Assembly (NCBI GenBank): GCA_038884455.1
Contig: JAWABU010000001.1
Span: forward strand, 11,263-75,262
Reading direction: 5' to 3'
DNA from: Thermoplasmatota archaeon
GTDB taxonomy: Archaea; Thermoplasmatota; E2; DHVEG-1
Length of the DNA stretch: 64,000 bases
The translations under genes were made by a program, and so were the position numbers. The number at the start of each line of letters is the position of its first letter. Within the stretch, counting starts at the first letter, position 1. Shown here in pieces: positions 26,517-60,808 of the stretch. The notes below the pieces were generated by a model. It was not told the DNA's origin and did not search any database. It saw only the letters and a program-made list of their open reading frames with translations.

Positions 26517-26541
26517 ATGAAATAAGAAGAGGGAAGATGGG

Positions 26542-39132: not shown

Positions 39133-41931
39133 ATGCGCAGAATTCCTGCATGTGTCATACTGAGTATGCTGTGTATATCGACAGTTGGATATGTTGGTTC
39201 TTCTATCCCTTCAAACCTGAGTACTCCTTCAGTTGTAAACCCAGCATCGTATACTCAAGGATATCGATATAACATTCAGGGATGGATCTATGTCTATATC
39301 AGGGGAGACGCCTATGAACGAGGATATCAACATGGGTATCTGCTTGCCGCTGAGATTGTTGATATGTTGAATCGTTGGAGTTATATGATTCATCACTATC
39401 CCACCATAGAACAGATCAGCCCTCGTCTTTCCGATGAACGATTTCATCGTGTTGCACAACAATGGTGGGATTTTTGCGTTCAGAACTGCTATCGAATGTA
39501 CTGGGATAAATACCCGGGTGAATACCGAGAGGAAATCCAAGGAATTGCTGATGGTGTCGCTGCACGAGGTGGTACCATCCATGGACGATCGGTAACCGTG
39601 AAGGATATCCTTACCATGAATCAGATGTATGAGTTTATGTCAAAATTAACAAAAATCCCGAAAGCACTACATCCTCTCCGAAGCTTTTTTTATCAGCTAC
39701 AACAGACGTTTTCTGAATTTTCAAATCTTCGTATCAACGATCTACTCGATCGGTTTCTTTCGCAGGATCCTGCACATCACTGTAATGGTTTTATTGCAAC
39801 TGGAAATGCAACAACTCATGGTCAAATCGTTTTTACCCATTCGACGATCTGCGGTGGAGGGATGTGGTGGTGGACGTATTTTATTTCACTCCGATGGAAT
39901 GTGATCCTTGATGTACACCCAACTCAAGGAAATCGTGTCATCATGTCAACCTCCCCCGGTCTTATCTGGAGTGATGAGGATTACTATCAAAATAATCAAG
40001 GCATCATGCTGTTAGAAACAACGCTTCCTCAAGGGTTGTACGACAACAAAGGATTGCCGTTATCAATCCGTGCTCGGAAAGCACTCCAATATGGAACAAC
40101 GATTGACGACGTGATCATGCATCTGACGTACCAAAATGATGGTTCGATGAATGCTGTCTGGTTGATTGGTGATAGTACAACTGGTGAGATTGCCCGGTTT
40201 GAACTTGGATATCATGCCTCAGCAGTCTGGCGGACCATGAACGGATTCTTCTGGAGTGCAAACAATCCATATGACCTCAGCGTTCGACTTGAAAAATTTT
40301 CTATCAAAAAATATATTCAGAAGCTTGCATGGAAACTAGTCGGTATCCCAGGATATGGATATTTTTCACCCCGCTATCATCCTGAAGCCCGCGATTTGAA
40401 ATACGAAGAACTCGGAAAGAAATACTATGGTCGGATTGATGTTGACCTCGTCAAAGAACTAGCGACAACCTCGCCGATTAGCGACTGGATAACTGACATT
40501 AAAATCACTGATACTGAGCTTGTGCGGAACAATGGGTTATGGATGTTCTGGGGCAATCCAGATAAAATATTGAATATCTCTCGGTTTGATACTCGAAATC
40601 AAACAATTGAAGCAGTACCACCTGCAGGGTGGGCGCGAATCTATGGCTTGCCTGAAAAACATACCTTTTCATTGATTATCCAACCCAATCAGCAGGGAAA
40701 TACGACAAAACTGCTCTGGAAAACACGTATTGCTGAACAAACCAATGATTTTTACTCATGTGCAGCACACGATGGATCTGTGATCTATACTGCAACCTCG
40801 GAAAATACTCTCGTTGCCCTGAATATGACTACAGGGACGCTGCTTTGGAAAACATCTCTTGGAAAAAATCCAGTACGACCTGTTGTATATCAAGAGTACC
40901 TGTACGTTGGATGTGCTGATGGTCTGTATGCATTTACGAAGGACGGGAAAAAACACTGGGTGTTTTCCTGTGAACCGATATGTTCCCCCCCAGTTATGTA
41001 TGAGGATCAGATATTACTTGGAACCCAGAAGGGACTGCTGTATGGTGTGTCTTGCAAAGATGGAAAACTGCTGTGGAAGATCTCATTTCCTGCTGCACTG
41101 TACCTCGGAAGTATCTCCAACGAAACACTCGTGGTTACGTCGGGGATGAGCTGCGCGGCATTCACCATAACGAATCGTTCAATCAGATGGTGGTGGAACA
41201 CCACCGGTATCATCACCTCAGCTCCTTGTATCTCTGACACAATGGTTGTTGTCGGATCCTGGGATACACACCTGTATGCTCTTGATCTGAACACCGGTGC
41301 TCTGCTCTGGAAATATGAAACAGGATGGGGGGTTGATGTACAACCAATTGTTGATGAAACCATGGTGTTTGTAGCTTCAGCTGACAACAACTTGTATGCA
41401 CTCAATAAAACAACCGGACTACTCGAATGGGTTTTTACAGCAAACGCTGCATTTCACGGCCAACCATGTGTCTATGGCGATTATATTTTTGCCGGTTGTG
41501 ATGATGGTACGTATTATGCTGTGAATCGATCAACAGGAAAACTAGTTTGGAGGTATACCCCTGGTGAAACAATACCACCTGGATCTCTCCGAAATTATAT
41601 TACAACTCCATTGCGTTCAAATCCAGTTGTTTTTGATGGAAACGTTATTTGTAGTGCACTTGGATCTGTTGTTGCTTTAGATGCTCAAACAGAGACCTCT
41701 GAAAATATACCACCCAGTCCTCCAGAGCATCATGGACAAGATGACGAAACACCTGATGAGAATCCTGATGAACATCAACCTGATGAACAACCACCAGCTC
41801 ATGAGGAACAGGAACATCAGGATAATACCTCTCTTGATGAGTATCGTTTTATTTTTTTATGTGCTGGACTCCTCATAGGTATTGTTATAACTGCTGGATA
41901 TGTACTTCGAAGAAAACAAAGATACGTATGA
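39133..41931 (+). CDS. Large cell-surface protein: signal peptide, Ntn-hydrolase (peptidase C45/acyltransferase-like) domain, PQQ-type beta-propeller, acidic His/Pro-rich linker and C-terminal TM anchor.
   Basis: Start MRRIPACVILSMLCISTVGYVGSS (ATG 39133). HHCNGFIATGNATTHGQIVFTHSTI is a possible autoprocessing site with Cys nucleophile. Multiple G.L.A.N..TG.LLWK PQQ repeats. C-terminal ...PDENPDEHQPDEQPPAHEEQEHQD then FIFLCAGLLIGIVITAGYVLRRKQRYV. Confidence 0.8.
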   Translation: MRRIPACVILSMLCISTVGYVGSSIPSNLSTPSVVNPASYTQGYRYNIQGWIYVYIRGDAYERGYQHGYLLAAEIVDMLNRWSYMIHHYPTIEQISPRLSDERFHRVAQQWWDFCVQNCYRMYWDKYPGEYREEIQGIADGVAARGGTIHGRSVTVKDILTMNQMYEFMSKLTKIPKALHPLRSFFYQLQQTFSEFSNLRINDLLDRFLSQDPAHHCNGFIATGNATTHGQIVFTHSTICGGGMWWWTYFISLRWNVILDVHPTQGNRVIMSTSPGLIWSDEDYYQNNQGIMLLETTLPQGLYDNKGLPLSIRARKALQYGTTIDDVIMHLTYQNDGSMNAVWLIGDSTTGEIARFELGYHASAVWRTMNGFFWSANNPYDLSVRLEKFSIKKYIQKLAWKLVGIPGYGYFSPRYHPEARDLKYEELGKKYYGRIDVDLVKELATTSPISDWITDIKITDTELVRNNGLWMFWGNPDKILNISRFDTRNQTIEAVPPAGWARIYGLPEKHTFSLIIQPNQQGNTTKLLWKTRIAEQTNDFYSCAAHDGSVIYTATSENTLVALNMTTGTLLWKTSLGKNPVRPVVYQEYLYVGCADGLYAFTKDGKKHWVFSCEPICSPPVMYEDQILLGTQKGLLYGVSCKDGKLLWKISFPAALYLGSISNETLVVTSGMSCAAFTITNRSIRWWWNTTGIITSAPCISDTMVVVGSWDTHLYALDLNTGALLWKYETGWGVDVQPIVDETMVFVASADNNLYALNKTTGLLEWVFTANAAFHGQPCVYGDYIFAGCDDGTYYAVNRSTGKLVWRYTPGETIPPGSLRNYITTPLRSNPVVFDGNVICSALGSVVALDAQTETSENIPPSPPEHHGQDDETPDENPDEHQPDEQPPAHEEQEHQDNTSLDEYRFIFLCAGLLIGIVITAGYVLRRKQRYV

Positions 41932-42678: not shown

Positions 42679-43185
42679 ATGAAAGCAAATAGAAAATTTA
42701 TAGATGGTGAGGAAGCAGTATCTGCGGTTATTGGTGTTATCCTCATGGTAGCAATTACCGTCGCCATAGCCGCAACCGTCTACGTCTACGTCAGCGGAAT
42801 GATGGACGTCAGTGGTGGATCTGCACCAGTTGCAGTCATCAACATCAACGATGGAGTAGCCACAGCAAGTTCTACAACAGGAACGTACAGTGCCAACGAT
42901 GAAGTATTTGTATTATTCCATTATAGTGGTGACACCATTCCAATGGCAGATGTCGTAATTGAATATATGGGTGGAGCTGTCACTTCATGGGATACACTCA
43001 TTGGATCAACAACAACCGGTGGACTAACTGCTGCCGCTCCAGCAGATGGTTTCTTCCAATTTGGTGATGAAATCGTTGTTAAAGCAGTTGATGCTAACAC
43101 CCAAGCAGGTGTGTATACTTTCCGCATCCGTCATAACCCAACAAGTTCATGGGTCATGCCAGCGAAAACCGCAACTGCTGTTTAA
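42679..43185 (+). CDS. Archaeal type IV pilin (class III signal peptide, PilA/DUF1628-like).
   Basis: MKANRKFIDGEEAVSAVIGVILMVAITVAIAATVYVYVSG resembles my recollection of the conserved haloarchaeal PilA hydrophobic domain GVSPVIGVILMVAITV (from memory, not searched). 168 aa. Confidence 0.8.
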   Translation: MKANRKFIDGEEAVSAVIGVILMVAITVAIAATVYVYVSGMMDVSGGSAPVAVININDGVATASSTTGTYSANDEVFVLFHYSGDTIPMADVVIEYMGGAVTSWDTLIGSTTTGGLTAAAPADGFFQFGDEIVVKAVDANTQAGVYTFRIRHNPTSSWVMPAKTATAV

Positions 43186-43302
43186 ACACCATACTAACCA
43201 CAATCTCAACTCTTTTTCTTCCTTTTTTCTCTAAAATCTTTTTAGAGTCTAAAACAAAATACAAAATCAATGAATCAAAAAAAATATGGGGATGGGGTAT
43301 AC

Positions 43303-43797
43303 ATGAAAAAACCATGCAAAAAAAAACTTAATCAAGAAGCAGTATCTGCAGTCATCGGTGTCACTATCATGGTTGCAATTACTGTCGCCATGGCTGCAGT
43401 AGCATATACCTATCTTACCGGTATGATTGGAGGCGAAACACCAACCCCAGTTGCATCGTTTAATATCAAAGATGGAACCGCAAATGCAAATGCTATGACT
43501 AATCTTTATAATGCTAATGATCAAGTTTTTATCATCGAACATTACAGCGGAGATACCATCACAACTAGTGAAATAACCATAGAATATAAAAGCCCAACAG
43601 GTACTTGGCAAACCCTCACCAGCACAGGACAAGCAGCTGGACTCAAAGCAACTATTCCCGCACATTTACAATTCGGCGATACTATCTCAGTAACCGCTGT
43701 CGATGCTAACACCAGAAATGGTGTGTATTTATTTCGCATCCGTCACAATCCCTCAGAAACATATCTGTTGCCTCAGATAGAAGCAACCGCTATATAA
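43303..43797 (+). CDS. Archaeal type IV pilin, tandem paralogue.
   Basis: Start MKKPCKKKLNQEAVSAVIGVTIMVAITVAMAAVAYTYLTG. C-terminal region parallels the upstream pilin (YSGDTI..., FRIRHNP...). Confidence 0.8.
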   Translation: MKKPCKKKLNQEAVSAVIGVTIMVAITVAMAAVAYTYLTGMIGGETPTPVASFNIKDGTANANAMTNLYNANDQVFIIEHYSGDTITTSEITIEYKSPTGTWQTLTSTGQAAGLKATIPAHLQFGDTISVTAVDANTRNGVYLFRIRHNPSETYLLPQIEATAI

Positions 43798-43834
43798 CAC
43801 AACATTCTCCATTTTTTGTGATTCTTGTACATTT

Positions 43835-43920
43835 CACAATGTCACCTAAAATAACCGTTTTTACCCGCATGAATCGTTTTTTTTTCGTATCCCTCCTTGT
43901 CAACGTATTACGTTTATCGT
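43835..43920 (+). repeat. Copy 1 of an ~60-80 bp intergenic direct repeat (core TTTCACAATGTCACCTAAAATAACCGTTTTTACCCGCATGAATCGTTTTTTTTT).
   Basis: Shares GTCACCTAAAA, AACC.TTTT and CATGAATC.TTTTTT blocks with copies at 45481-45580 and 47208-47265, all in the same orientation. Confidence 0.5.
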
Positions 43921-44062
43921 ATCTTTGGGAGTTTTTGTTCGGTTCGTTTCGTTCCATTTGGTTGTTGTCGTCGTTTCATGATTTTTTGTGAACGGGGAAG
44001 GCAGAGGCGAGGATGGAGTTATGGGCGAAACGATAAAAGAATTCTATATGAACCTGAGAGTA

Positions 44063-45325
44063 CTACGAAAAACCAAGCAGCCATTTCCACACAGGAAGAA
44101 CCTGTATCGTTTTATTCGCTACATGAATTTCTTCCTCCTGCTCTTTTGTAAGAAGCAAACCTTCTTTCAAATGAAACATTTCCATAGCTTCAAGTAAACC
44201 AGCGACCTCGCGTTCCTTATCACCTTCATCCAGAACATAACAAACCTGGATCGCCTCACAAATCCGCGTGTCTTCTTTAACCAGGAAATCACATTCGTGA
44301 TGATTTGTAAAATAATACACATCTTTTTTCTGTCGTTTCAACTCAAGGAACACCAGATTTTCTAAAACCTGCCCTTTATCCGAGGAAAACGTTGTTCCAA
44401 AAACATAATGAAACGCGGGATCAACCGTGTAGATTTTTTTTGGGGCGTTGAGTTGCTTTTTAAGAGAATAATCAAAACGCTGCACCTCAAAAAACAGATA
44501 CGAGTTGCACAGATATGAGATATACTCTTTAACTGTAATCGAATTCGATAGCTGTAATGTTTTTTTCAAGGAGTTGTAAGTGAAAGGAGAAGCAATCGTT
44601 GTCATTAAAATATTGACAAGTTCTTTCAAGGTTTTCTGCCGTTTAATCATATATCGGGCAATGATATCTCGATAGAGAATGTTATTATAGAGTGTGTGAA
44701 GATATTCCTTATCCCTGGTTTTCAGATATTCCGGTATTCCACCGTGAATCATATACTCATCAAACAACCGAATCAAATGAACTTTTTTTTCTGTTAGATA
44801 CAACCAGTCTTTTTGTGGTACACTTTTTTTGAATCGAAGAAATTCTCTAAACGAAAACGGATACACTTCAAATGCTTTATACCGTCCAGTTAACCGTGTG
44901 CCAAACTCCTTGCTCAACAGCGAGGCATTGGATCCAGTGATGATTATTTTTTTCCCTTGATCATGAAGTCGCCGAACAAATGTTTCAAATTTATCGATAT
45001 TTTGAATTTCATCAAAAAAATAGAATTTAGGAGATGGATACACCTCAAGAAGGATTTCATGCAGTTGTTCAAAATCTTTAGCGTTGAACTCAAGAAACCG
45101 TTCATCATCAAAATTGACATAACACATATTCTTGTTCTGATGTATCAGTTGTTTCAAAAGTGTTGATTTACCGCTTCGTCGCAATCCCGTAAGTATAAGA
45201 ATTCTTGGATCCTTGAACCAGGATACGATGTCGTCTATATTTTCTCGAAGAACAGTTTCTCCAGGGAGAACACTATCATTTTTCTGCTGGATGACAACCT
45301 GACGAAAAACTTCCTTCGACATCAT
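44063..45325 (-). CDS. AAA+ ATPase of the COG1373 family (AAA_14 plus DUF4143).
   Basis: Walker A GLRRSGKST. Walker B FFDEIQ. 420 aa. C-terminal DUF4143-like region. Confidence 0.8.
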   Translation of the reverse strand: MMSKEVFRQVVIQQKNDSVLPGETVLRENIDDIVSWFKDPRILILTGLRRSGKSTLLKQLIHQNKNMCYVNFDDERFLEFNAKDFEQLHEILLEVYPSPKFYFFDEIQNIDKFETFVRRLHDQGKKIIITGSNASLLSKEFGTRLTGRYKAFEVYPFSFREFLRFKKSVPQKDWLYLTEKKVHLIRLFDEYMIHGGIPEYLKTRDKEYLHTLYNNILYRDIIARYMIKRQKTLKELVNILMTTIASPFTYNSLKKTLQLSNSITVKEYISYLCNSYLFFEVQRFDYSLKKQLNAPKKIYTVDPAFHYVFGTTFSSDKGQVLENLVFLELKRQKKDVYYFTNHHECDFLVKEDTRICEAIQVCYVLDEGDKEREVAGLLEAMEMFHLKEGLLLTKEQEEEIHVANKTIQVLPVWKWLLGFS

Positions 45326-45480
45326 ACTAAATGGTAGTTAGTATTAACATATAAATGTTTTCATTACCAATTAGCACAATGCAACATACTGAACGTGGCA
45401 GCGGCCTTGGCGAACAATCGTTTTCAGAAACAACCGACATTCTTTACCGTCTGTACGATGATCAAATCCGTAGTCTCATG

Positions 45481-45580
45481 GGTGACTCCTCAACCTTCCA
45501 AACCGTCATCTAAACACGATTTTTTCCACATGAATCATTTTTTCTATGTTACCTTACGCCAACGTACTCCTTTTATGCCA
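45481..45580 (+). repeat. Copy 2 of the intergenic direct repeat (GGTGACTCC...TTCCAAACCGTCATCTAAACACGATTTTTTCCACATGAATCATTTTTTCTATG...).
   Basis: Lies in the divergent intergenic region between the two COG1373 genes. Aligns with copies 1 and 3. Confidence 0.5.
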
Positions 45581-45791
45581 GTATTGGTGTTTTATTCGGT
45601 TCGTCTTGCAGAGTTGATTGATCTCGTTATTTGTGGTTTTTATGATTTTTTGAGCGGGATAGTAGCGTAGGATGAAAAATAAGGTACAGAAAAGATGGTA
45701 ATGACGCAGGTATTCTAGGACAAATGCATAAAAATGGTTAATATATCGATTACAATCGAAAGATTTATAATTTTCATTCGATTACGTTAGA

Positions 45792-47078
45792 GTGATGAAA
45801 GAAATCTTATTTGACTGGAATCCATGGTGGGCAGAATCATATACCTTCCAAAAAGTAAAAAGGGAACTCTTCCAACGCATCAAACCATGGATTGAGAGAA
45901 AAGAAATCATTGCACTCCTCGGGGTTAGGCGAAGTGGAAAAACAACCGAACTTTTTGAGATTATTGACCACCTCATTCATGAACAACATATCAACAGAGA
46001 CAATATCTGCTTCATAAAAGCAGATGACGATCGTGTGGAAAAAAAAGAGTTAATTCAAAAAGCATTAGACGAATACATCACCTGGAAAAATCCGAAAGGT
46101 AGAATCTTTCTATTTATCGATGAAATACAAGAAATACCTGAATGGCAAAAAACACTTAAAAGAATATACGATCTTGAACAAGAAAACAAAAAGATTTTCA
46201 TTTCAGGATCCAACGCCTCGTTATTGAAAGAAGAACTCAGTTATCTCCTTACGGGGAGATTCGCTTATTTTGAATTGTATCCCTTTAGTTTTAAGGAGTT
46301 CCTCCTGGCTCATAATATCAAGATACAAAATGAAATGGATTTGATACAGCAGAAAAATACGATTAGGAATCTTCTCCTCGCCTATATCGAATACGGAGGT
46401 TTTCCTGAAATAACTCTTGAAAGAGATAAAGAAAAGAAAGAAGAATTGTTACGCTTTTACTTTGAATCAATCCTCTATAGAGATGTCGTAAAAAGAAAAA
46501 ATATTAGAAATGTCGAAAAACTCGACCGACTGGTAAGATGGCATTTGCAAAATACATCTGCCTATGCAAACTATGAGAAACTTGGCAAGTATTGCGAACT
46601 ATCAACAGATACGACAGGAGAATACACGCGATATCTTGAAGACGCCTATCTCATTTTTGTTGTAAATATTTTTGCTTATTCGCTAAAGAAACAATTCGTT
46701 AATCCGAAGAAAGTGTATTGTATCGATCCTGGTATACGAAAAATCGTCGGATTCATCTTTTCTCAGGATAGCGGAAAAATGTATGAGAATATAGTGTTTA
46801 TACATCTCCGACGGACCGGAAAACAAATTTTCTATTGGAGCGAGAAACACGAATGTGATTTTATCATCCAAAATAAAATGAACATCGAAGAAGTGATTCA
46901 GGTTTCATCTGATCTTCAAGAAAACAAAGAACGGGAAGTGAACGGTTTACTCGAAGCCATGAAACATCTCAACGTTCTAAAAGGAAGTATCATTACGAAA
47001 GATTACGAATCGAAAGAAATCATCGATGAAAAAGAAATTCGATTTATCCCTCTCTGGAAGTGGCTCCTTCTTCGTTGA
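45792..47078 (+). CDS. AAA+ ATPase of the COG1373 family, divergent paralogue.
   Basis: Walker A GVRRSGKTT. Walker B FIDEIQ. 428 aa. Same architecture as the minus-strand paralogue. Confidence 0.8.
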   Translation: MMKEILFDWNPWWAESYTFQKVKRELFQRIKPWIERKEIIALLGVRRSGKTTELFEIIDHLIHEQHINRDNICFIKADDDRVEKKELIQKALDEYITWKNPKGRIFLFIDEIQEIPEWQKTLKRIYDLEQENKKIFISGSNASLLKEELSYLLTGRFAYFELYPFSFKEFLLAHNIKIQNEMDLIQQKNTIRNLLLAYIEYGGFPEITLERDKEKKEELLRFYFESILYRDVVKRKNIRNVEKLDRLVRWHLQNTSAYANYEKLGKYCELSTDTTGEYTRYLEDAYLIFVVNIFAYSLKKQFVNPKKVYCIDPGIRKIVGFIFSQDSGKMYENIVFIHLRRTGKQIFYWSEKHECDFIIQNKMNIEEVIQVSSDLQENKEREVNGLLEAMKHLNVLKGSIITKDYESKEIIDEKEIRFIPLWKWLLLR

Positions 47079-47207
47079 TCTTTTTTTGTTTCTATATACG
47101 ACTGCAATCATGGAGACGAAGTACTTTTCAGGACCAGCTAGAGTAGTGTACCAACTCTAGGCATATCGACTGATCTTGTAGATTTCATTCCAAGAGCAAA
47201 CATGATG

Positions 47208-47265
47208 GTGACGTCACTTTCCAAAACGTCACCTAAAAAACCATTTTATCCGAATATTACCACAC
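47208..47265 (+). repeat. Copy 3 of the intergenic direct repeat, preceded by a perfect GTGACGTCAC palindrome.
   Basis: GTGACGTCACTTTCCAAAACGTCACCTAAAAAACCATTTTATCCGAATATT aligns with copies 1 and 2. Confidence 0.5.
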
Positions 47266-47357
47266 AACAAACCCCGTTATTCCTTGTGAATCTCACCGAA
47301 AAAAAACACAGTATTCGAGAGAAAACCATATATCTACGGTAGCAATACTCTCTATAG

Positions 47358-47783
47358 ATGGATACAGAAAGGCGTGATCGATACAAGGATAAGCTTGAAC
47401 TCATTGAAAAAAGACTCCAAGAAATAGAAGAGTGGACAAACATATCCTCGCAAGAGTTTATCTCAGATGAAAAAACGAAACTCGCAACATATAAAGCGTT
47501 TCAAGAACTAGCAGAATCCTGTATGGATATCGTTGCAATGGCATGTAAAGATTTAAAAATTCTGCCGAAAGATGATTACACCAATGTCGAAAAACTTAGT
47601 CAAAAACTGAACATCAATAAACGAATGCTCCAAGAAATAAACGGACTTAGAAATAGGTTGATTCATCGATACAACAGCACTGATGATACCGTAGCTTTTG
47701 AGAGTATCCACGAGCTAATGATAGAAATCAATACATTTATAGACGTGATTAAACGATGGATAAAAAAATCATTAAAAAAATAA
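47358..47783 (+). CDS. hepT: HEPN-domain toxin, HepT/DUF86 family.
   Basis: Rx4HxY motif (RNRLIHRY) near the C-terminus. 141 aa. Confidence 0.75.
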   Translation: MDTERRDRYKDKLELIEKRLQEIEEWTNISSQEFISDEKTKLATYKAFQELAESCMDIVAMACKDLKILPKDDYTNVEKLSQKLNINKRMLQEINGLRNRLIHRYNSTDDTVAFESIHELMIEINTFIDVIKRWIKKSLKK

Positions 47784-48130
47784 AAAACGATTTCTCACCA
47801 TTCCACAATAGAGTATTGGGCATAGTACTCTATGGCTCACACCAGAAAAGAACTCAGACAGCTCGGAGCGACATCGATATCTGTATTATAGCCCCCGGTG
47901 AAAATCACAAAAGACTGTTTAAAGAGATGCTTCCCCTCAACTATGACATTAAGATTTTTGAAACAATGCCGCTCTTTCTAAAAATACAAGTTATTCACCA
48001 TCATAAGATACTGTATACAAAAGATCGATATGCACTCTACGAGTATTTCTATATTTTTAGAAAACTCTGGAATGATCAAAAAGAAAGACAGCGTCTCACT
48101 AAAAAAGAAGCACTCTACCTCTTTAGTTAA
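47756..48130 (+). CDS. mntA: Minimal nucleotidyltransferase (MNT) antitoxin partner of HepT.
   Basis: GSx10DxD motif (LYGSHQKRTQTARSDIDICII). 124 aa. 28-nt overlap with hepT. Confidence 0.75.
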   Translation: MDKKIIKKIKNDFSPFHNRVLGIVLYGSHQKRTQTARSDIDICIIAPGENHKRLFKEMLPLNYDIKIFETMPLFLKIQVIHHHKILYTKDRYALYEYFYIFRKLWNDQKERQRLTKKEALYLFS

Positions 48131-48177
48131 ACAAAGAGATGCTGTACCTTTGACTTAAGATTCCTTTGTAATTGATC

Positions 48178-48711
48178 CTATATATATTTTAATTCTTTGA
48201 GTTTTTTTATGACGTTCTGAGTGCTTTCGTCAATTGTTTCTTTATCAGAATAAAGAATCAAATCAGGATGTTTCGGTTCTTCGTAGACATCATCAACTCC
48301 AGTAAAATCTTTAAGTTCACCAGTACGTGCTTTCTTATACATCCCTTTTACATCTCGTTGTATACAAACCTCAAGAGGGCATTTAACATAAATTTCAACA
48401 AAAGAACCAAGAATACGTCGAGCATACTCGCGATGTGTTTGATACGGAGAAACAAAGCTTGCTACCACAATAACCCCATGCCGCGTTAACAGTTTTGCAA
48501 CAAAAGTAACTCGTCGTATATTCTCATCTCGGTCCTTTTTTGAAAAACCAAGATCACTGCAGAGCTCCTTTCGAACGTTATCCCCGTCGAGAACCTCAAC
48601 TGCATAACCATCTCCTCTCAATATATCAGCAACACGATGTGCAATTGTAGTTTTACCAGAACACGGTAAACCAGTAAACCATACTGTAAACCCTCGTTGA
48701 TTTTCCCTCAT
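48178..48711 (-). CDS. cysC: Adenylylsulfate (APS) kinase.
   Basis: MRENQRGFTVWFTGLPCSGKTTIA P-loop and LDGDNVR motif. 177 aa. Confidence 0.85.
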   Translation of the reverse strand: MRENQRGFTVWFTGLPCSGKTTIAHRVADILRGDGYAVEVLDGDNVRKELCSDLGFSKKDRDENIRRVTFVAKLLTRHGVIVVASFVSPYQTHREYARRILGSFVEIYVKCPLEVCIQRDVKGMYKKARTGELKDFTGVDDVYEEPKHPDLILYSDKETIDESTQNVIKKLKELKYI

Positions 48712-49721
48712 CGGTTAACCTCACAACCAGTATCAGTTAAAAAATCTATAATTTTTTCAACAAAAAGATGAGTTTTTTCCTTGGGAACAATAGCACCAAG
48801 TACCTCTGCCTTCCCACCGGTTTTAAAACCATACTTCTTTCCAAGTTGAATTAACGGTTCAACATTCTTATGACTCCGAACATAAATCTGATCCATATCT
48901 TTAAAAAAACCGGTATTAATAACAAGTGTGTTTTTCCCAGATTGCCATGCAATTTTCCGGGTGATCGTTGAAATAATATTATACGTCGTATCAATTTTTT
49001 TAACCACGACGTCTTTAATTATCTCCTGGGGTTGACGAAGACACAATGAAATTTCTTCGTCGAGTTTGATGAGGTTTTTTTTCCATTGTGAATTCTGAAG
49101 AATCATATCACCATTGGTATAATCTAATAAGCGGCGGGGCGCTTCCTCGACTTGTTTCTTATCGCCGATCTTATAACACGAATCAAGTAAATACACCATT
49201 CGAAGCATCGTATCAAAAGAGATACCATACAAGGAACAATACTGCTCAATACGTGGGTACATTGCGTTATTACCCAGAATTTTCTGTTCATGATCACCGA
49301 CAACACCAAGTAACGCCCATAACGTAACCTCCTGTTTCAGAAACTCATTCACAATCCAGCTTGTAGATGGATATAGATCAGGATTTTTACCACGACTAAT
49401 CGGGTTATAATGGTGAACCGCAGGAATGATGTTTTGAAGATGATGATCAAAAATAAATATTTGTGGAATGGTTTTCGACAAACGAAGAATGTTTTCCTCA
49501 GGGAGAGCCATATCAACTATGATAAGAAAATCATACTTCGAATAGCAAGTCAATTCAGCCTCCGTAAGAAAATAATTTCCCAACTCTGGAGTAACATTGG
49601 TAATGGTTTTATCATGTAAAAATTCTAATATCAGACGTGCTGAACAAATGCCATCGGTATCCCAATGATGGAGTAAAAGCCCCTCCCCCAAAAGATGAAT
49701 CAAATCCTTTTTTTCACACAT
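48708..49721 (-). CDS. DHH-family phosphoesterase (NrnA-like; candidate 3-prime-phosphoadenosine 5-prime-phosphate phosphatase).
   Basis: DHH motifs (HHWDTDGICSA, DHH). DHHA1-like C-terminal half. Embedded in the sulfate-activation operon. Confidence 0.7.
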   Translation of the reverse strand: MCEKKDLIHLLGEGLLLHHWDTDGICSARLILEFLHDKTITNVTPELGNYFLTEAELTCYSKYDFLIIVDMALPEENILRLSKTIPQIFIFDHHLQNIIPAVHHYNPISRGKNPDLYPSTSWIVNEFLKQEVTLWALLGVVGDHEQKILGNNAMYPRIEQYCSLYGISFDTMLRMVYLLDSCYKIGDKKQVEEAPRRLLDYTNGDMILQNSQWKKNLIKLDEEISLCLRQPQEIIKDVVVKKIDTTYNIISTITRKIAWQSGKNTLVINTGFFKDMDQIYVRSHKNVEPLIQLGKKYGFKTGGKAEVLGAIVPKEKTHLFVEKIIDFLTDTGCEVNR

Positions 49722-49745
49722 ACAAAACCTTTTTACTCTTCATGT

Positions 49746-51011
49746 TTACTCTCTGATCATCCCAGCACCAACTGTCTCATTTGTCTGCTCATCAATAAGA
49801 ATCAAAGAACCTGTAGAACGATTCCGTCGGTAACTATCAAAGAACAACGGTTGCGAAGTATGAATCTTGATCCGACCGATCTCATTTAAACTAAGCTCCT
49901 CAACCTGTTCAACGCGATGCAAGGTGTTGATATCAATTTTATAGTAAATCGACGTAACTATTCCTTTAACCTCTCGAGTTGTATGGCGAATACTATACTT
50001 TTTCCCAGAGATCAACGGACGTGTACTCATCCAACATACCAACATATCAATATCTTGACTGACAGTTGGTAGATTATGCTCACGGACAATCATATCTCCA
50101 CGACTCACATCAATATCATCTTCAAGCTGCATAACAACTGACATCGGTGGAAAAGCTTCCTGAACACACCCAGAAGGGGATTCAATTGTTTTAATTTTAG
50201 TTGAAAAACCGGACGGCAATACCTTAACACGATCCCCGGGTTTGAACACACCACTTGCGATTTTTCCTGCATACCCTCGATAGTCATGATACATTTCAGA
50301 TCGAGGGCGAATCACGTATTGTATCGGAAATCGACAGTCAACCAAATTCTCATCACTACCTATATGGATATTTTCAAGCAGATACATAAGTGTTGGACCT
50401 TTATACCACGGCATATTCTTGGAGGGTTCAACAATGTTATCACCATGCAACGCACAAATCGGGATAAAAGAAATATCATTTACCTGAAGTTTTACGACAA
50501 AATCCTCAATATCCTTCTTGATCTTTTGATACACTTCCTGTTGATAATCTACTAAATCCATCTTATTGATACAAATCACAAAATGAGGTATCTGCAATAA
50601 TGCTGCTATGAAAATATGTCGATGAGTTTGCTCAACAACACCATTTCGAGCATCAACTAAAATCACAGCAAGATTTGCCGTTGATGCACCAGTAACCATA
50701 TTTCTGGTGTACTGGATATGTCCTGGTGTATCAGCGATGATGAACTTACGTACCGGCGTAGCAAAATATCGATAGGCAACATCAATAGTAATCCCCTGCT
50801 CACGTTCTGCCCGAAGACCATCGGTTAACAATGCAAGGTTTAATGTTTCTCCGCGCTGCTCACAGAGTCGCTCAAGATTTCTGAGTTGATCCTGAAAAAT
50901 AGTTTTACTGTCGTATAACAATCGCCCAATCAACGTACTTTTCCCATCATCAACACTTCCTGCAGTGGTAAACCGAAGTAACTCCATTTCAGCATAGTTT
51001 CGCTGAGTCAT
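49746..51011 (-). CDS. cysN: Sulfate adenylyltransferase subunit 1 (GTPase).
   Basis: G-domain motifs GSVDDGKST, DTPGH, NKMD. EF-Tu-like domains II and III. 421 aa. Confidence 0.85.
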   Translation of the reverse strand: MTQRNYAEMELLRFTTAGSVDDGKSTLIGRLLYDSKTIFQDQLRNLERLCEQRGETLNLALLTDGLRAEREQGITIDVAYRYFATPVRKFIIADTPGHIQYTRNMVTGASTANLAVILVDARNGVVEQTHRHIFIAALLQIPHFVICINKMDLVDYQQEVYQKIKKDIEDFVVKLQVNDISFIPICALHGDNIVEPSKNMPWYKGPTLMYLLENIHIGSDENLVDCRFPIQYVIRPRSEMYHDYRGYAGKIASGVFKPGDRVKVLPSGFSTKIKTIESPSGCVQEAFPPMSVVMQLEDDIDVSRGDMIVREHNLPTVSQDIDMLVCWMSTRPLISGKKYSIRHTTREVKGIVTSIYYKIDINTLHRVEQVEELSLNEIGRIKIHTSQPLFFDSYRRNRSTGSLILIDEQTNETVGAGMIRE

Positions 51012-51013
51012 TA

Positions 51014-51925
51014 TTAGAAATATCCCTCCTTTTTCCGATCTTCCATTGAATTTTCAGATCTCAGATCATCACCTCGACTCACCCGTTCTGACTGCCGAGA
51101 TTGCGCAATCTCATCAACAATTTCTCTGATGGATACTGCTCGTGACTGGATCAAACCAGTACATGTCATATCTCCAACGGTACGACAACGTACAAGCATT
51201 GATTTCACATTTTTCTTCTCATGATCATCAAGATGTAGGAACGGAGACAACGCATAAATGACACCGTCTCGAATAATACACTCTCGCTGATGAGCAAAAT
51301 AAATCTTGGGTACTTCGATATTTTCCCAAAGAATATATTGCCAAACATCAAGCTCAGTCCAATTACTTAACGGAAAGATTCTAAAATGTTCCCCGGCATG
51401 TTTTCGTCCGTTGTATAGATCCCAAAGTTCAGGACGTTGATTCTTTGGATCCCATTGACCAAAATCATTTCGATGAGAAAAAAATCGTTCCTTTGCCCGT
51501 GCTTTCTCTTCATCTCTTCTTCCTCCTCCAATTGCTGCATCAAACTTATACTGATGGATCGTATCAAGCAATGTCGTTGTTTGTAACAGATTTCTACTCG
51601 CATACCGACCTGTTTCCTCATGAACTCGTCCTGCATCAATTGATTGTTGTACTGATCCTATAATCAACCGTACTCCCAGTTTTTTGACGAATGCATCTCG
51701 AAACTCTATGGTTTCTGGAAAATTATGACCGGTATCGATATGAACAAAGGGAAAAGGAATGGGTGCAGGATGAAATGCTTTTTTTGCCAGAATTCCAAGG
51801 ACAATTGAATCTTTTCCCCCTGAAAATAACAAACAAGGGCGTTCAAACTGTGCCACAGTTTCACGAAGAATATATATTGCTTCTGACTCTAGTTTCTCCA
51901 TATGATTTAAAGTATATCGAGTCAT
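51014..51925 (-). CDS. cysD: Sulfate adenylyltransferase subunit 2 (PAPS reductase-like fold).
   Basis: Start MTRYTLNHMEKLESEAIYILRETVAQFERPCLLFSGGKDS (ATG at 51925), giving about 304 aa as for E. coli CysD. The ORF-track start at 52027 is an upstream extension. Confidence 0.85.
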   Translation of the reverse strand: MTRYTLNHMEKLESEAIYILRETVAQFERPCLLFSGGKDSIVLGILAKKAFHPAPIPFPFVHIDTGHNFPETIEFRDAFVKKLGVRLIIGSVQQSIDAGRVHEETGRYASRNLLQTTTLLDTIHQYKFDAAIGGGRRDEEKARAKERFFSHRNDFGQWDPKNQRPELWDLYNGRKHAGEHFRIFPLSNWTELDVWQYILWENIEVPKIYFAHQRECIIRDGVIYALSPFLHLDDHEKKNVKSMLVRCRTVGDMTCTGLIQSRAVSIREIVDEIAQSRQSERVSRGDDLRSENSMEDRKKEGYF

Positions 51926-52068
51926 AATTTGCCAGTACTTCAGTATCAACATATTTATATATGTTTGTTTTTTGTAAAAAAAAGCGCATTTCGACAACTG
52001 AAAACGTCTTGCCAAGCCCACCTCCAAAAAAGGTATCTTAATAATCCAGAAAAACTATACAAGGACCT

Positions 52069-52794
52069 ATGACAAATGAACTGATGATACTAAACATCAT
52101 CCGATTTATAACAGGATCGCTCGTACTTCTCTACGCATCGTACACCGATATTAAAACCAGGCGGGCAGCAAATTATCTCTGGGTCATCATCGGAGGGGTT
52201 GGAACGATTCTGCTCATCATCCAGTATATCATGATTGGTTTTGACAATATCTTTATGCTCATCTTCATCCCTCTCTTTATCGGCCTTATGTATCTTCTGT
52301 TCCAACTTCGAGTAATTTTCGGAGGAGCTGATGCAAAAGCATTTATGGCGCTTGCAATCCTTGTCCCTATTCAACCGGTCATCGCATCATTTCCAATTCT
52401 TGATAGCGGGCCAATAACTATGCCAGGATCCTGGATCATCTTTTCAAATTCGGTACTCCTCTTTCTGATAATCCCTATTAGTTTATTGATCTATAATACC
52501 ATAAAGAGAAATCTCCAATTCCCCTATTGTCTGCTTGGTTATCAAACATCGGTCGAACGGGCACGGCAAACATTTGTCTGGCCTCTCGAGAAAATAGTCG
52601 ACGGAAAACGAAAATTCTCCTACAAACCACAAGAAGAAGACATTGAGGAACATCTTAAAAAGTTCGACGAACAAGGAATCAAAACACTCTGGGTTACCCC
52701 AAAAATACCATTTATGATTCCGATGCTTGCTGGTTTTATCACCACTTTTATCCTTGGAGACCTTCTATCAGCTTTGATATATTCTCTTGTATAA
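52069..52794 (+). CDS. A24-family prepilin/preflagellin peptidase (FlaK/PibD-like).
   Basis: Polytopic membrane protein with the two catalytic Asp motifs (SYTDIKTRR and GGADAKAF). 241 aa. Confidence 0.75.
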
Positions 52795-52852
52795 CAATAA
52801 CAACAAGAAGAACATACATATATACCTTTTTTTCATTACCAGTCTGCGAGCT

Positions 52853-53956
52853 ATGACAAAACGAGATTACTATGAAATTCTTGGAATCGACAGAAATGCT
52901 TCAAAAGAGGACATCAAAAAAGCATACCGTAAACTCGCATTAAAATATCATCCTGATAAAAACAAAGAAAAAGATGCAGAAGAAAAATTCAAAGAGATTT
53001 CTGAAGCATATGCTGTTCTCTACGACGATGAAAAACGAAAAATGTATGATACCTATGGTCATGCAGGAATTGATCAGCAATACACACGAGATGATATTTT
53101 CAGAGGTACCGATTTCAGCGATATTTTCAGAAGTATGGGATTTGATTTTGGGTTCAGTAGTTTTGATGATATCTTTGAACAGTTTTTCGGTCAACGCCGG
53201 GGATACAGTCGACAAGAACGAGTTCGAAGAGGATCTGATCTCCGGTATGATATCGAAATTACGTTAGAAGATGCATATCGTGGGATGCAAACAGAACTTG
53301 ATATCCCCCGTTCAGAACCATGCGACACATGTGGCGGAAGTGGTGCAAAACCAGGGACAAGTCCACAACGATGCACCCAATGTGATGGGACCGGGCAGAT
53401 TCGACGATCCCAGCGTACTGGTTTTGGTTTATTTACCCAGGTCACCGTATGTCCTCGATGCAACGGTCAAGGTACTTTTATTGAACAACGATGCCCAAAT
53501 TGCCGAGGACGCGGCGTCGTACAAAAGACTCGTAAGATAGAGATTACCATACCTCGCGGTATTGACGACGGCTCGCAACTTCGACTTGCGGGACAAGGAG
53601 AAGCTGCACCAGGTAACGGTGTAAACGGCGATTTATACATTGTTGTTCACATCAAAGAGCATCCGTTTCTGACACGAAGAGGATCTGATTTGTATCAGAA
53701 AGTAAAAATTAGTTTTCCCCTTGCGGCTCTCGGCGGTAAAAAGATGATTCCTACATTACAAGGTTCTGAAGAACTTCGGATCCCCGAAGGAACTGAGAGT
53801 GGAGATATGTTCAAATTAAAGGGAAAGGGCATGCCGTACTTACGGGGCAGTGGTTTTGGTGATATGTATGTTGAGGTTCATATTGAAACACCAAAACGGT
53901 TATCCCGGAGAGCTCGTATGCTCCTCGAAGAATTTGACAAAGAGTGTTCTGAATAA
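52853..53956 (+). CDS. dnaJ: Chaperone DnaJ (Hsp40).
   Basis: J domain DYYEILGI...[16 protein letters not shown]. Four CxxCxGxG zinc-finger repeats. C-terminal substrate-binding domains. Start ATG 52853. Confidence 0.9.
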
Positions 53957-55349: not shown

Positions 55350-55688
55350 ATGAGTAGACAAACGAAAAAAAGCCAGAAAAAGACCACAACAAAACAAGCG
55401 ATGAACGAAGCATTAAAACAATGGCTCTCTGAAACAGATCAACAAATCCTATCACAGAAAATTGAACATCACCTCGAAGGAAGAAAACCAGAAGGAATGT
55501 GTCGGGCTTGCGGAGTTAATCAAGCAAAAGCAATATGTATCAAATGTGGTAACTCTGTGTGCATTTCTTGTTACTATAGCATCATCGGACTCTGCCGAAA
55601 TTGCATCTCTAAAGAAACCGTAAACCAGTGGAAAGCAAAAAAACCAAACTGGAAAACTATCCTCGGCGTCGACTGGGTGGACGAGTAA
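55350..55688 (+). CDS. Basic N-terminus plus 8-Cys zinc-finger protein (hypothetical).
   Basis: CRACG...CIKCG..CISC....CRNC. 112 aa. 3-prime end overlaps the convergent acetyl-CoA synthetase gene by about 32 nt. Confidence 0.5.
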   Translation: MSRQTKKSQKKTTTKQAMNEALKQWLSETDQQILSQKIEHHLEGRKPEGMCRACGVNQAKAICIKCGNSVCISCYYSIIGLCRNCISKETVNQWKAKKPNWKTILGVDWVDE

Positions 55689-57069
55689 CACCACGTTCGT
55701 GTTTAATTCGTTCGCCTTCTAAAAATAATCCAGTCATCGCTCGAGCACACCGCCATGAAGAAGGATAAATTGGAACACCTGCAGATTTCAAATCAAGGAC
55801 AAGGTCTTCAAATTCTTTTCCACCAACCCAACAGCCAAGAATTGGTTTCTGATACTCTTCATGGAGTTGCTGTTCTTTAATCATTTTCAAAATCGCACCA
55901 GTATATTCACGTGGTCGAGCATACCCCGCATGAACCGATGCAACAATAACACCATCAATATGCGGATCTTGAAGTAAAGCAAGTGTTGATTCATAGTAGC
56001 GATAAAATCCTGCATCAGCAACCAGATCAACAGGGTTGTTCGGATTCACCAAGGGTGGCAATATTTTTTGAATTTTCTTATAGGTTTTTGATGAAAGTTT
56101 TGGAATCGTTAAACCATTTGCCTCACAAGCATCGGTCAGCATAATCCCAAGACCACCGCCGTTGGTAACAATACCTATGCGGTTTCCCCACGCAGGCGGT
56201 TGGCCATCGAGTGCACGTGCCATATCAAAGAGTTCGACGAGATCACGACATCGAATACCACCCGCTTGCTTAATTGCAGCACTGTACAACTCATCGCTAC
56301 CTGCCATAGAACCGGTATGCGAGGCAGTTGCACGAGCACCCGCCGCGCTCCGTCCTGCTTTCACGACTAAAACAGGTTTGTCACAGGCATGAATACTATT
56401 CATGAATTGCCGGCCGTTTTTTACTGCTTCAATGTACATACCGATAACTTTCGTTTCAGGGTCTTTACTGAAATAATCGATAAGATCAACATCATCGATA
56501 TCGATTTTGTTGCCGACACCGATAATTTTTGAGAGTCCAACGAACTCATTATTGGCAAGGTAGATCATACCCATACCGAGGGCTCCACTTTGACTAATCA
56601 AAGCAAGCCTTCCTTTCCGGGGCATACCAAAAACAAACGATACATCCAAACTATCCGAAGCGTTTTTATAACCCATGGTGTTTGGCCCAAGGATACGAAT
56701 GCCGGTTCCTTCAACGATTTTTTTGATTTCTTCTTCTTGAGCATGGTTGCCAATTTCACTAAAACCTGAGGAGATGATGATAATATATTTTACCTTTTTT
56801 TGGACACAATCCCTGACAACATCGGTAACAAACGGAGCAGGAACTGCAATCATAACTAGTTCGACCGGACCTGGAATATCCGTCAATTTTTTGTAACATT
56901 TTAGACCAAGAATCTCTGCTTCATTTGGATTCACCGGATAAAGCTTACATGAATATTCTGAAATGAGGATGTTTTTTAAAGATGCATGTCCGATTTTTGT
57001 TGGATTTTTTGATGCACCGACAACAGCTACACTTTTTGGTTTAAAGAATGATTCGAGCGGTATTTTCAT
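55657..57069 (-). CDS. Acetyl-CoA synthetase (ADP-forming) alpha subunit / NDP-forming acyl-CoA synthetase.
   Basis: N-terminal CoA-binding Rossmann fold KSVAVVGASKNPTKIGH. Succinyl-CoA-synthetase-like domain with a phospho-His region. 470 aa. Confidence 0.8.
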   Translation of the reverse strand: MKIPLESFFKPKSVAVVGASKNPTKIGHASLKNILISEYSCKLYPVNPNEAEILGLKCYKKLTDIPGPVELVMIAVPAPFVTDVVRDCVQKKVKYIIIISSGFSEIGNHAQEEEIKKIVEGTGIRILGPNTMGYKNASDSLDVSFVFGMPRKGRLALISQSGALGMGMIYLANNEFVGLSKIIGVGNKIDIDDVDLIDYFSKDPETKVIGMYIEAVKNGRQFMNSIHACDKPVLVVKAGRSAAGARATASHTGSMAGSDELYSAAIKQAGGIRCRDLVELFDMARALDGQPPAWGNRIGIVTNGGGLGIMLTDACEANGLTIPKLSSKTYKKIQKILPPLVNPNNPVDLVADAGFYRYYESTLALLQDPHIDGVIVASVHAGYARPREYTGAILKMIKEQQLHEEYQKPILGCWVGGKEFEDLVLDLKSAGVPIYPSSWRCARAMTGLFLEGERIKHERGVTRPPSRRRG

Positions 57070-57184
57070 TACTTGATTTCCTCCTTTGTATCTCGTACAC
57101 TAAATAACCTAGAATAATTACAAACGACAACAGCTCTTATTACTTAAACATACTGAAAAAAGATATATATTCATATATCTCTGT

Positions 57185-57700
57185 TTAAAGATATGATTTC
57201 ATAAGCTGAACAATTTCTGCGCTTGTTTTCGCCCTCCGGTATCCCTCGAGCAACTCATGGTTCAACACCAAAAACTGAGGACCCCATTTGTATAACGAAA
57301 GAAGCAACCGAGAAAGATCAACATCTCCAAGAATATACGCTGCTGCAGCAAACGCCTCAACTGTTGATAATTGAAACGGTTTTCCATAATTCACGGGATT
57401 CGCAGCAAGAAGAAACGGCAACGCTCGAGAAGTACACCGAACGTCAAGAATAGAAAACGTATCTTCTACATGCTTCCATGAACAATCCACAGCAACAAGA
57501 CCATGGCGAGCTGCGGCCAAACGATCTTCAGCTGAAAAACATTTCTGCGCAAACGGATTCAACACCACCGCCTTCCGAGGAATACCTGCCATTGTTTTCT
57601 CTAATGTAACATACCCAAAACGAGATAGCTTTTTCGCAGTACATTTCTTCGGATCGTCTTCATCTGCATGATACACAATCAGACGGAATGGTTGATTCAT
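57185..57700 (-). CDS. tsr3: Tsr3-like (DTW-domain) 16S rRNA aminocarboxypropyltransferase.
   Basis: YHADEDDPKKCTAKKL motif characteristic of archaeal Tsr3. 171 aa. Confidence 0.6.
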   Translation of the reverse strand: MNQPFRLIVYHADEDDPKKCTAKKLSRFGYVTLEKTMAGIPRKAVVLNPFAQKCFSAEDRLAAARHGLVAVDCSWKHVEDTFSILDVRCTSRALPFLLAANPVNYGKPFQLSTVEAFAAAAYILGDVDLSRLLLSLYKWGPQFLVLNHELLEGYRRAKTSAEIVQLMKSYL

Positions 57701-57703
57701 AAC

Positions 57704-58540
57704 CTATCGTATCTCCACATCAAGCACACCATGAATAACACCAGGAGCATAGGATTTTACCACATACTGTCCAAGTAACGTTGCTTGTTTATGATTTTGA
57801 CGTGCAACTTCTTGAATATATGAAAACGGTTTCATAGGTACCTCTTCATCAGAATAAATACCGTGAAAATGAATAACCCCACCAGATGGCTTCAAACAAG
57901 ACAATGCAACCGACAAAAACCGATGTGTACCATGAAGATACCCCATGATCACACGATCAGCACACAGTCGTGGGGCGCACGTCTGATTATCCCCGAAAAC
58001 TGGTTTCACAATTTCAGTAACATGATTGAGAACAATGTTCTCACGTAAATACTGAAATGCAATAGGGTTGATCTCACACGCAATAATCCTCCAAGGTTTG
58101 CTAAATTTTGCCATAGGTAGTGAAAAATAACCAATCCCTGCAAACAAATCAACAACACATTCTGAAGGGTTTGAAATATATGCCATCCTCCGACGCTCAT
58201 GCATGTTTCCTGAAGAAAACATAACCTTTTGAGGATCAAGCTTAAAACGGATGCCGTGCTCCCGATGAATCGTCTCGGTATCAGGAACGCCATACAATAA
58301 TCGTACCTGCGGCTCACGATACACTCCAGATATACCGCCAACGTCATCAAGCACTGTTTTACAGTGCAACACCTCTGCATACACCTTACACACCTGCTCC
58401 TCATATCCCTTTAAACATGCAGGATATTTCACGAGCAACACATCACCAATTTTTTCCCATCTCCGAGGTAAACAAGAAATCTGATCATCAGAAAGCTGTG
58501 ATCGCAGTACCTTTTTAATATGTTCAAACGGAGAATCCAT
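57704..58540 (-). CDS. Class I SAM methyltransferase of the Trm5/Taw2 (TYW2) family.
   Basis: VDLFAGIGYFSLP SAM motif. Trm5-like N-terminal region. Start probably MDSPFEHIKK (ATG 58540), avoiding overlap with the XPD gene. Confidence 0.7.
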   Translation of the reverse strand: MDSPFEHIKKVLRSQLSDDQISCLPRRWEKIGDVLLVKYPACLKGYEEQVCKVYAEVLHCKTVLDDVGGISGVYREPQVRLLYGVPDTETIHREHGIRFKLDPQKVMFSSGNMHERRRMAYISNPSECVVDLFAGIGYFSLPMAKFSKPWRIIACEINPIAFQYLRENIVLNHVTEIVKPVFGDNQTCAPRLCADRVIMGYLHGTHRFLSVALSCLKPSGGVIHFHGIYSDEEVPMKPFSYIQEVARQNHKQATLLGQYVVKSYAPGVIHGVLDVEIR

Positions 58541-58615
58541 ACACTTCAAAATTGCGAATCGAAAACACTTATAAAAAGTCTTCAAAAGAAATCATCACCA
58601 CCTCCAACAACTCTT

Positions 58616-60805: not shown

Positions 60806-60808
60806 GTA

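Follow-up and report, generated by a model that had tools for sequence, protein, structure and literature searches.

A CysDN-type sulfate-activation operon with a predicted pAp phosphatase gene in a Thermoplasmatota archaeon, and the probable use of its PAPS

What does an archaeon do with activated sulfate when no gene for its consumption lies nearby? The question is raised by a 64,000-nucleotide (nt) stretch of DNA from a Thermoplasmatota archaeon (contig JAWABU010000001.1, positions 11,263 to 75,262), called the window throughout, in which four minus-strand open reading frames (ORFs) at 48178-51925 form an operon in the order cysD-cysN-PAPP-cysC, with boundaries as originally predicted. Three of the genes encode an ATP sulfurylase (CysDN) and an adenosine 5'-phosphosulfate (APS) kinase (CysC), the enzymes that make 3'-phosphoadenosine 5'-phosphosulfate (PAPS), and the other, PAPP, encodes a DHH-family protein predicted to be a phosphatase of 3'-phosphoadenosine 5'-phosphate (pAp, or PAP) and related to MtPAPP of Methanothermococcus thermolithotrophicus. 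The operon belongs to the known archaeal clusters of ATP sulfurylase, APS kinase and PAPP (ATPS-APSK-PAPP), here with CysDN as the sulfurylase. It is probably a self-contained unit for PAPS supply and pAp clearance, whose PAPS is used by a sulfotransferase encoded elsewhere in the genome.

The operon and its four enzymes

The features of the operon and its upstream region are as follows, with lengths in amino acids (aa) and the evidence for each:
51014..51925, minus strand: cysD, small (catalytic, PP-loop) subunit of sulfate adenylyltransferase, 303 aa (NF003587, TIGR02039, PAPS_reduct)
49746..51011, minus strand: cysN, GTPase subunit of sulfate adenylyltransferase, 421 aa (TIGR02034)
48708..49721, minus strand: PAPP, predicted MtPAPP-type pAp phosphatase of the DHH family, 337 aa (match to PDB entry 8A8K, metal ligands)
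48178..48711, minus strand: cysC, adenylyl-sulfate (APS) kinase, 177 aa (PF01583, TIGR00455)
51926..52068, minus strand: 143-nt spacer between cysD and the divergent gene for an A24 prepilin peptidase, with a putative cysD promoter (read from the sequence)

Both sulfurylase subunits score above curated family cut-offs, are encoded by adjacent genes and retain their motifs, which places them in the heterodimeric CysDN family. CysD reaches 428 bits against NF003587 (cut-off 195), 397.0 against TIGR02039 (cut-off 396.6) and 152 bits against Pfam PAPS_reduct, carries the PP-loop SGGKDS at residue 35, and starts at the ATG at 51925, the same start as in its orthologue in L004, the closest related locus. 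CysN scores 556 bits against TIGR02034 (cut-off 336) and contains the GTPase motifs G1 (GSVDDGKS, residue 18), G3 (DTPGH, 94) and G4 (NKMD, 149), with no fused APS-kinase domain in its 421 residues. CysC is an APS kinase by its scores against PF01583 (218 bits) and TIGR00455 (240 bits, cut-off 138.7), and by its P-loop GLPCSGKTT at residue 14 and DGD at 42. The four genes are tightly packed: cysD and cysN are separated by 2 nt and cysN and PAPP by 24 nt, PAPP runs 4 nt into the start of cysC, and Shine-Dalgarno-like sequences precede cysN (GGAGG) and cysC (GAGGT). Catalytic motifs are intact in all four ORFs. Family scores and motifs thus bear out the original prediction that this gene order makes PAPS.

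The DHH protein required closer identification, having first been described as a DHH/DHHA1 protein of the NrnA type. The DHH part of that description stands: Pfam recognises an N-terminal DHH domain, alone, at 34.6 bits (cut-off 28.1). The DHHA1 part does not, as the Pfam scan returned no DHHA1 match. A single-sequence phmmer search of the PDB gave one relevant match, the M. thermolithotrophicus PAP phosphatase 8A8K (E=1.6e-35, residues 14-317 of the query aligned with 21-321 of the chain). In an alignment of the window PAPP with MtPAPP and ten Thermoplasmata homologues (alignment A1), the window protein and MtPAPP are 33% identical, and the match spans both the DHH and the DHHA1-like domains. 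The Mn-binding residues of MtPAPP are His6, Asp8, Asp10, Asp57, His76, His77 and Asp127 (PMC10322725); the equivalents of all seven ligands, H19, D21, D23, D70, H93, H94 and D143, are invariant in A1. Likewise invariant with MtPAPP are the C-terminal motifs NIIS(248), R255 and GGK-EVLG(302-309; GGKAEVLG302 in the window), and the text of PMC10322725 gives no list of AMP-contacting residues.

Biochemical and crystallographic work established MtPAPP as a highly PAP-specific, Mn-stimulated phosphatase (structure 8A8K) whose gene adjoins those of ATP sulfurylase and APS kinase, and its authors counted 168 archaeal homologues (PMC10322725). In the PDB, the next matches of a PAPP-family profile are the archaeal RecJ2/GAN nucleases, over the N-terminal domain only. 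No NrnA chain turned up in either PDB search, with E limits of 1 for the single sequence and 10 for the family profile. The best NCBIfam match of the window protein, RecJ_archaeal, reaches 32 bits where the cut-off is 360. The protein also has GGK at the position expected for the GGGH motif of the DHHA1/NrnA family. The NrnA-type assignment was rejected on these three grounds, namely the missing DHHA1 match, the absence of NrnA from the PDB searches and GGK in place of GGGH. The DHH protein is a member of the MtPAPP-type PAP phosphatase family and, by its match to 8A8K and its seven ligands, a predicted pAp phosphatase, as the original prediction had it. The family is small, with 310 clusters (50% identity) at E <=1e-3 among 1.84 billion representatives; homologues of the window PAPP at about 60% identity number in the hundreds.

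In the pathway that we propose, CysD and CysN would adenylylate sulfate to APS, driven by GTP hydrolysis, and CysC would phosphorylate APS to PAPS. The sulfuryl group would then be passed on by a PAPS-dependent sulfotransferase whose gene lies elsewhere in the genome, the acceptor being most plausibly an envelope glycan or lipid, and the Mn-dependent DHH phosphatase PAPP would hydrolyse the inhibitory pAp to AMP and phosphate. The predicted CysDN, CysC and PAPP steps have strong support in family membership and, for PAPP, also in a characterised homologue. The existence of a consumer in this genome, its being a sulfotransferase, and its substrate are suggested by analogy with the related loci described below.

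Related loci and the fate of PAPS

The claim that no consumer of PAPS is encoded nearby held up. Within the window, Pfam was run on the 51 main ORFs of >=110 aa, shadow ORFs excluded, and on one more that the window end truncates; no sulfotransferase, no PAPS_reduct protein beyond CysD and no sulfite reductase was found. The window gave no tblastn match to three sulfotransferase types from relatives, to the homo-oligomeric sulfurylase Sat, to a DASS-family sulfate symporter, or to E. coli CysH, CysI and CysJ, and no homologue of the sulfotransferases ST1, ST3 and ST4 was found in it by tblastn or blastp. A hidden pseudogene of a sulfotransferase, Sat or symporter was rejected for the window (tblastn, E up to 10) and for L004 (E up to 1).

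Relatives of the operon were sought in a scan of species-representative genomes, 268 of which encode a relative of PAPP. The best 80 loci were analysed, loci from contig look-ups were added, and ORFs were called and labelled against annotated references. The analysed loci are mostly from metagenome-assembled genomes (MAGs) of sediment Thermoplasmata, with sources that include cold seeps, Guaymas and White Oak River; three of them, SM1-50, M9B1D and 3300003432D, are published genomes of Thermoprofundales, or MBG-D (Marine Benthic Group D). The closest PAPP in the scan is 64% identical to that of the window. L004 has the same four genes, with identities of 84% (CysD), 86% (CysN), 65% (PAPP) and 68% (CysC), and across the clusters PAPP is 52-65% identical to the window protein.

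In 59 loci PAPP lies inside a sulfate-activation cluster: 42 have Sat (Sat-type), 16 including the window have CysDN (CysDN-type), and one, L021, encodes PAPP-CysC-ST1 without a recognisable sulfurylase. A further 24 loci have a solitary PAPP. The order sulfurylase-PAPP-cysC on one strand recurs in 58 related loci with both sulfurylase types, and the window conforms to it. What usually follows is a gene for ST1, found directly after cysC in 47 of the 59 cluster loci (36 Sat-type, 10 CysDN-type and L021). The Sat-type order is a 77-aa ORF, Sat, PAPP, CysC and ST1 (~195 aa), often with a DASS sulfate symporter and Usp. This cassette (loci L007 and L010-L081; for example L014:8616-12198 and L033:8616-13618) usually sits between purQ and genes for GlmS, a sugar nucleotidyltransferase and Wzx. 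In CysDN-type loci CysD-CysN stand in place of Sat within the same cassette. The 77-aa ORF has no Pfam match and is possibly a small regulator.

The ST1 proteins (191-226 aa) score above the Pfam gathering thresholds for Sulfotransfer_1 and Sulfotransfer_3, and the 5'-phosphosulfate-binding (5'-PSB) loop and the R-x7-S motif of the 3'-phosphate-binding (3'-PB) site are invariant. All its significant PDB matches (E <0.07) are PAPS-dependent sulfotransferases or close fold relatives, the matches being weak (best E=7e-5). Two CysD-CysN-CysC operons lack PAPP, and with them a Sulfotransfer_3 gene stands beside a GT2 gene 3-4 kb away. Homologues of PAPP at 43-46% identity also occur in Bathyarchaeia MAGs (L082, L084-L088, L090), in unrelated contexts with no linked sulfate-activation genes. 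The searched literature held no description of a Sat/CysDN-PAPP-CysC-ST1-DASS cassette; a search for Thermoprofundales together with sulfotransferase returned nothing, and PMC9585477 makes no mention of sulfate.

Genes for reducing PAPS were missing from the same loci. No CysH, CysI or CysJ homologue was found by tblastn in the window or in 90 related loci, so that no PAPS/APS reductase with sulfite reductase was found within the 64 kb or those loci, and Pfam annotation of the window ORFs and some loci showed no PAPS_reduct paralogue or NIR_SIR protein. According to Zhou et al. (PMC6461988), most Thermoprofundales MAGs have genes for the APS and PAPS steps while CysH and CysJI are missing; the supplementary tables of that paper do not list sat or cys genes MAG by MAG. 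Because ST1 follows cysC in most of the related clusters, no reductive genes are linked, and the Thermoprofundales MAGs lack CysH and CysJI, sulfation is the most likely fate of the PAPS and better supported than assimilation. The suggestion in the original prediction that PAPS may feed sulfation has therefore gained support.

Several observations weigh against this reading. The window and L004 have neither ST1 nor a sulfate symporter nor the small upstream ORF, and no sulfotransferase gene lies directly downstream of the window cysC. ST1 is truly absent from six of the 16 CysDN-type loci (the window, L004, L010, L032, L059 and L064), the other ten having it. In the Sat-type loci it follows cysC in 36 of 42, and a contig end truncates five of the other six, leaving 36 of 37 untruncated loci with the gene; its loss is thus commoner in the CysDN type (6/16 versus 1/37, Fisher p=0.002). 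The founding family member, MtPAPP, serves an assimilatory pathway (PMC10322725), and CysDN is classically the assimilatory ATP sulfurylase (PMC6286981). An AprAB-like PAPS reductase and Fsr were not seen in the Pfam annotation of the window and some loci, for which no dedicated queries were made.

These points make assimilatory sulfate reduction the best-placed alternative, if an unlikely one: an unlinked PAPS reductase (CysH-like or AprAB-like) and a sulfite reductase would be encoded elsewhere, and PAPP would clear the pAp that the reductase releases. Beyond the classical role of CysDN and the concentration of ST1 loss in loci of that type, it draws on the precedent of MtPAPP, the only characterised member, which works in assimilation with atypical, easily missed reductases (PMC10322725), and on the window lineage having dropped the operon sulfotransferase. 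Sulfide is usually plentiful in such sediments. There, a costly GTP-driven route to reduced sulfur would be hard to justify, and this availability of sulfide, together with the lack of a linked reductase in the sample and of CysH and CysJI in the published MAGs, makes assimilation the less likely fate. A bolder combination seems to us more doubtful still, namely that the 'incomplete assimilatory pathway' of Thermoprofundales is a complete, dedicated sulfation system, and that the PAPS of the window lineage goes to an unrecognised type of consumer, either the 'non-canonical sulfotransferase' of Jespersen et al. or a new PAPS reductase.

The chromosomal site and the origin of the operon

The window operon lies outside the purQ...GlmS/Wzx neighbourhood. 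It is flanked on one side by HepT/MNT, two ATPase genes of the AAA_14/DUF4143 kind and genes for archaeal pilins, and on the other by an A24 prepilin peptidase gene and then dnaJ. This region (42679-53956) is the site at which about 16 sister Thermoplasmata genomes hold a solitary PAPP (L020, L026, L028, L030, L031, L035, L036, L038, L039, L042, L045, L046, L060, L075, L078 and L089), in the order pilin(s), PAPP, divergent A24 peptidase, DnaJ, HD-OB, XPD, Trm5, Tsr3 and ADP-forming acetyl-CoA synthetase (ACS). At the site itself, what sets the window apart from the solitary loci is precisely cysC to one side of PAPP and cysN-cysD to the other. Remnants of cysD, cysN and cysC were sought beside the solitary PAPP genes and none was found. 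Either the cassette took the place of a PAPP gene already at the site, or the flanking genes were cleanly lost from the solitary clade. A bootstrapped neighbour-joining tree of PAPP favours neither history: the window and L004 are sisters in 99/100 replicates, but the placement of this pair relative to the solitary and cluster-type clades has little support (0/100 and 26/100 replicates).

The upstream regions of the two kinds of locus are distinct. An A-rich/TATA-like element lies at ~51953-51975, about 30 nt upstream of the cysD ATG, and the element AAAAAACA[A/T]ACA[T/C]AT[A/T]TAAA is common to the cysD upstream regions of the window and L004. It is unlike the promoter-like element that the solitary loci carry within a conserved 70-nt spacer of their own. 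The cysD-upstream element may act as a promoter; since it is shared by the window and L004 and differs from that of solitary PAPP, the cassette would carry a promoter of its own. A promoter common to solitary PAPP and the window cysD was sought and not found.

Persistence of PAPP as a lone gene raises the question of whether the operon is its principal context. At this site PAPP might serve mainly for housekeeping: its substrates would be short RNAs or the pAp released by phosphopantetheinyl transfer from CoA, and its placement in the operon would be secondary. The sister genomes that keep it with a conserved promoter-like element and no cys remnants point that way, as do the Bathyarchaeia homologues unlinked to sulfate genes and the RecJ-like nucleases that are its nearest solved relatives after MtPAPP. 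On the other hand, the position of PAPP between sulfurylase and cysC in 58 loci of both types argues for selected co-expression, the window PAPP and cysC overlap, MtPAPP is highly PAP-specific (PMC10322725), and genomes with solitary PAPP may produce PAPS all the same, from genes not linked to it, as in L008 and L009. We regard the housekeeping role as improbable. Slightly less probable again is a relic module without a consumer, on its way to the loss that may have befallen the solitary-PAPP sister clade, as the want of a sulfotransferase, transporter or regulator at the locus and of cysDN or cysC in the sister genomes could suggest, against which stand four intact ORFs with every catalytic motif, the 84-86% identity of CysD and CysN to L004 versus 65-68% for PAPP and CysC, indicating purifying selection, and an upstream promoter-like element conserved with L004.

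The module had also been called accessory and possibly horizontally acquired. At this site it is accessory, sister genomes having PAPP alone; the proposed transfer fared less well. CysN has at least 120 relatives at 75-86% identity, and every named one among the best 120 is archaeal, and the G+C content of the four genes, overall (GC) and at third codon positions (GC3), is within the range of the housekeeping genes of the window. A recent bacterial or horizontal transfer was rejected on these two grounds. With CysN, CysD and CysC ~50%, 44% and 44% identical to the E. coli proteins, an ancient bacterial source of CysDN is plausible, and CysDN is already known from anaerobic methanotrophic archaea (ANME) and some methanogens (PMC6286981). 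In the PAPP tree (loci L004-L090) the Sat-type loci fall among those of the CysDN type, for example as the sister pairs L050/L080 and L025/L029, which implies that the sulfurylase was exchanged repeatedly within one cassette. The CysC tree contains two deep types, a short one (177-181 aa) found mostly with CysDN and a long one (203 aa) found mostly with Sat, with a few mismatched combinations; the window CysC is of the short type.

Several features of the surroundings were recorded in their own right. The HepT (RNase toxin) and MNT (nucleotidyltransferase antitoxin) genes at 47358-48130 overlap and converge on cysC, MNT ending 47 nt from the cysC stop; HepT-MNT also abuts solitary PAPP in L030 (79% identity to the window copies) and L042 (65-69%). 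The AAA_14/DUF4143 ATPase paralogues at 44063-45325 (minus strand) and 45792-47078 (plus strand) are divergent and 38% identical to each other, and the former has a counterpart at 80% identity after cysC in L004. The window has ~2.8 kb more than L004, comprising the second ATPase gene and HepT/MNT, between cysC and the first ATPase gene. The block ACS(ADP-forming)-Tsr3-Trm5-XPD-HD/OB at 55657-61972 is inverted in order and orientation relative to L028, L035, L038 and L060.

Elsewhere in the window, a complete 16S-tRNA-Ala-23S-5S operon at 6727-11671 identifies the host as an archaeon, and the fermentative context noted originally is confirmed by subunits of pyruvate:ferredoxin oxidoreductase (POR), ADP-forming acetyl-CoA synthetase and an aminotransferase. 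Two large adjacent ORFs at 602-6395 encode proteins of 1063 aa (DUF2341 match) and 893 aa (no Pfam match), and a 962-aa protein at 39043-41931 combines a phospholipase-B-like region with PQQ/beta-propeller repeats; these three very large ORFs may encode surface or secreted proteins. A signalling cluster at 22331-27723 comprises a helix-turn-helix (HTH) regulator, a response-regulator receiver, a 399-aa ORF with no credible Pfam match, a HAMP-HisKA-HATPase histidine kinase and a HAMP-PAS protein.

Significance and comparison with known systems

Taken alone, the window changes little: its four enzymes are from characterised families, and an archaeal PAP phosphatase was described in 2023. The related loci carry more weight. 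Benthic Thermoplasmata, which are abundant, have been annotated with a truncated sulfate assimilation pathway, which the cassette reframes as a probable sulfation system, and its genomic context points to sulfated envelope glycans or lipids in uncultured archaea. ST1 is a concrete candidate enzyme for 'route 1c', a hypothetical route in Jespersen et al. (PMC10322725). The exchange of Sat and CysDN in one cassette and the persistence of PAPP without PAPS genes are cases of modular operon evolution.

Among the closest known systems is the ATPS-APSK-PAPP neighbourhood of M. thermolithotrophicus (Jespersen et al. 2023, PMC10322725), which likewise combines an ATP sulfurylase, an APS kinase and a DHH PAP phosphatase. 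The sulfurylase there is the homo-oligomeric Sat, whereas that of the window is the heterodimeric CysDN, and the window, in its Pfam annotation and with no dedicated queries, has no linked AprAB-like PAPS reductase or Fsr. The hosts differ as well, that of the window being a non-methanogenic sediment archaeon of the Thermoplasmatota, and so does the likely fate of PAPS, reduction there and sulfation ('route 1c') here.

The Thermoplasmata cassette has the same sulfurylase-PAPP-cysC arrangement as the window and occurs in CysDN versions in 13 loci besides the window, L004 and L010. The window departs from it in having no ST1, symporter or 77-aa upstream ORF and in its position at the solitary-PAPP site.

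Two bacterial systems complete the comparison. The cysD-cysN-cysC genes of E. coli encode orthologues in the same order (44%, 50% and 44% identity for CysD, CysN and CysC), with the difference that in the window a gene for a PAP phosphatase separates cysN from cysC and no cysH, cysI or cysJ is linked. In E. coli the PAP phosphatase is the unrelated CysQ, encoded elsewhere, and cysDNC is coupled to cysHIJ. B. subtilis NrnA, a bifunctional nanoRNase and pAp phosphatase, is a member of the DHH superfamily and has the two-domain DHH/DHHA1-like fold of PAPP (PMC10322725), and both would act on pAp, as predicted for the window protein. The two have no detectable sequence relationship beyond the DHH motifs, and MtPAPP, unlike the bifunctional NrnA, is reported to be PAP-specific (PMC10322725).

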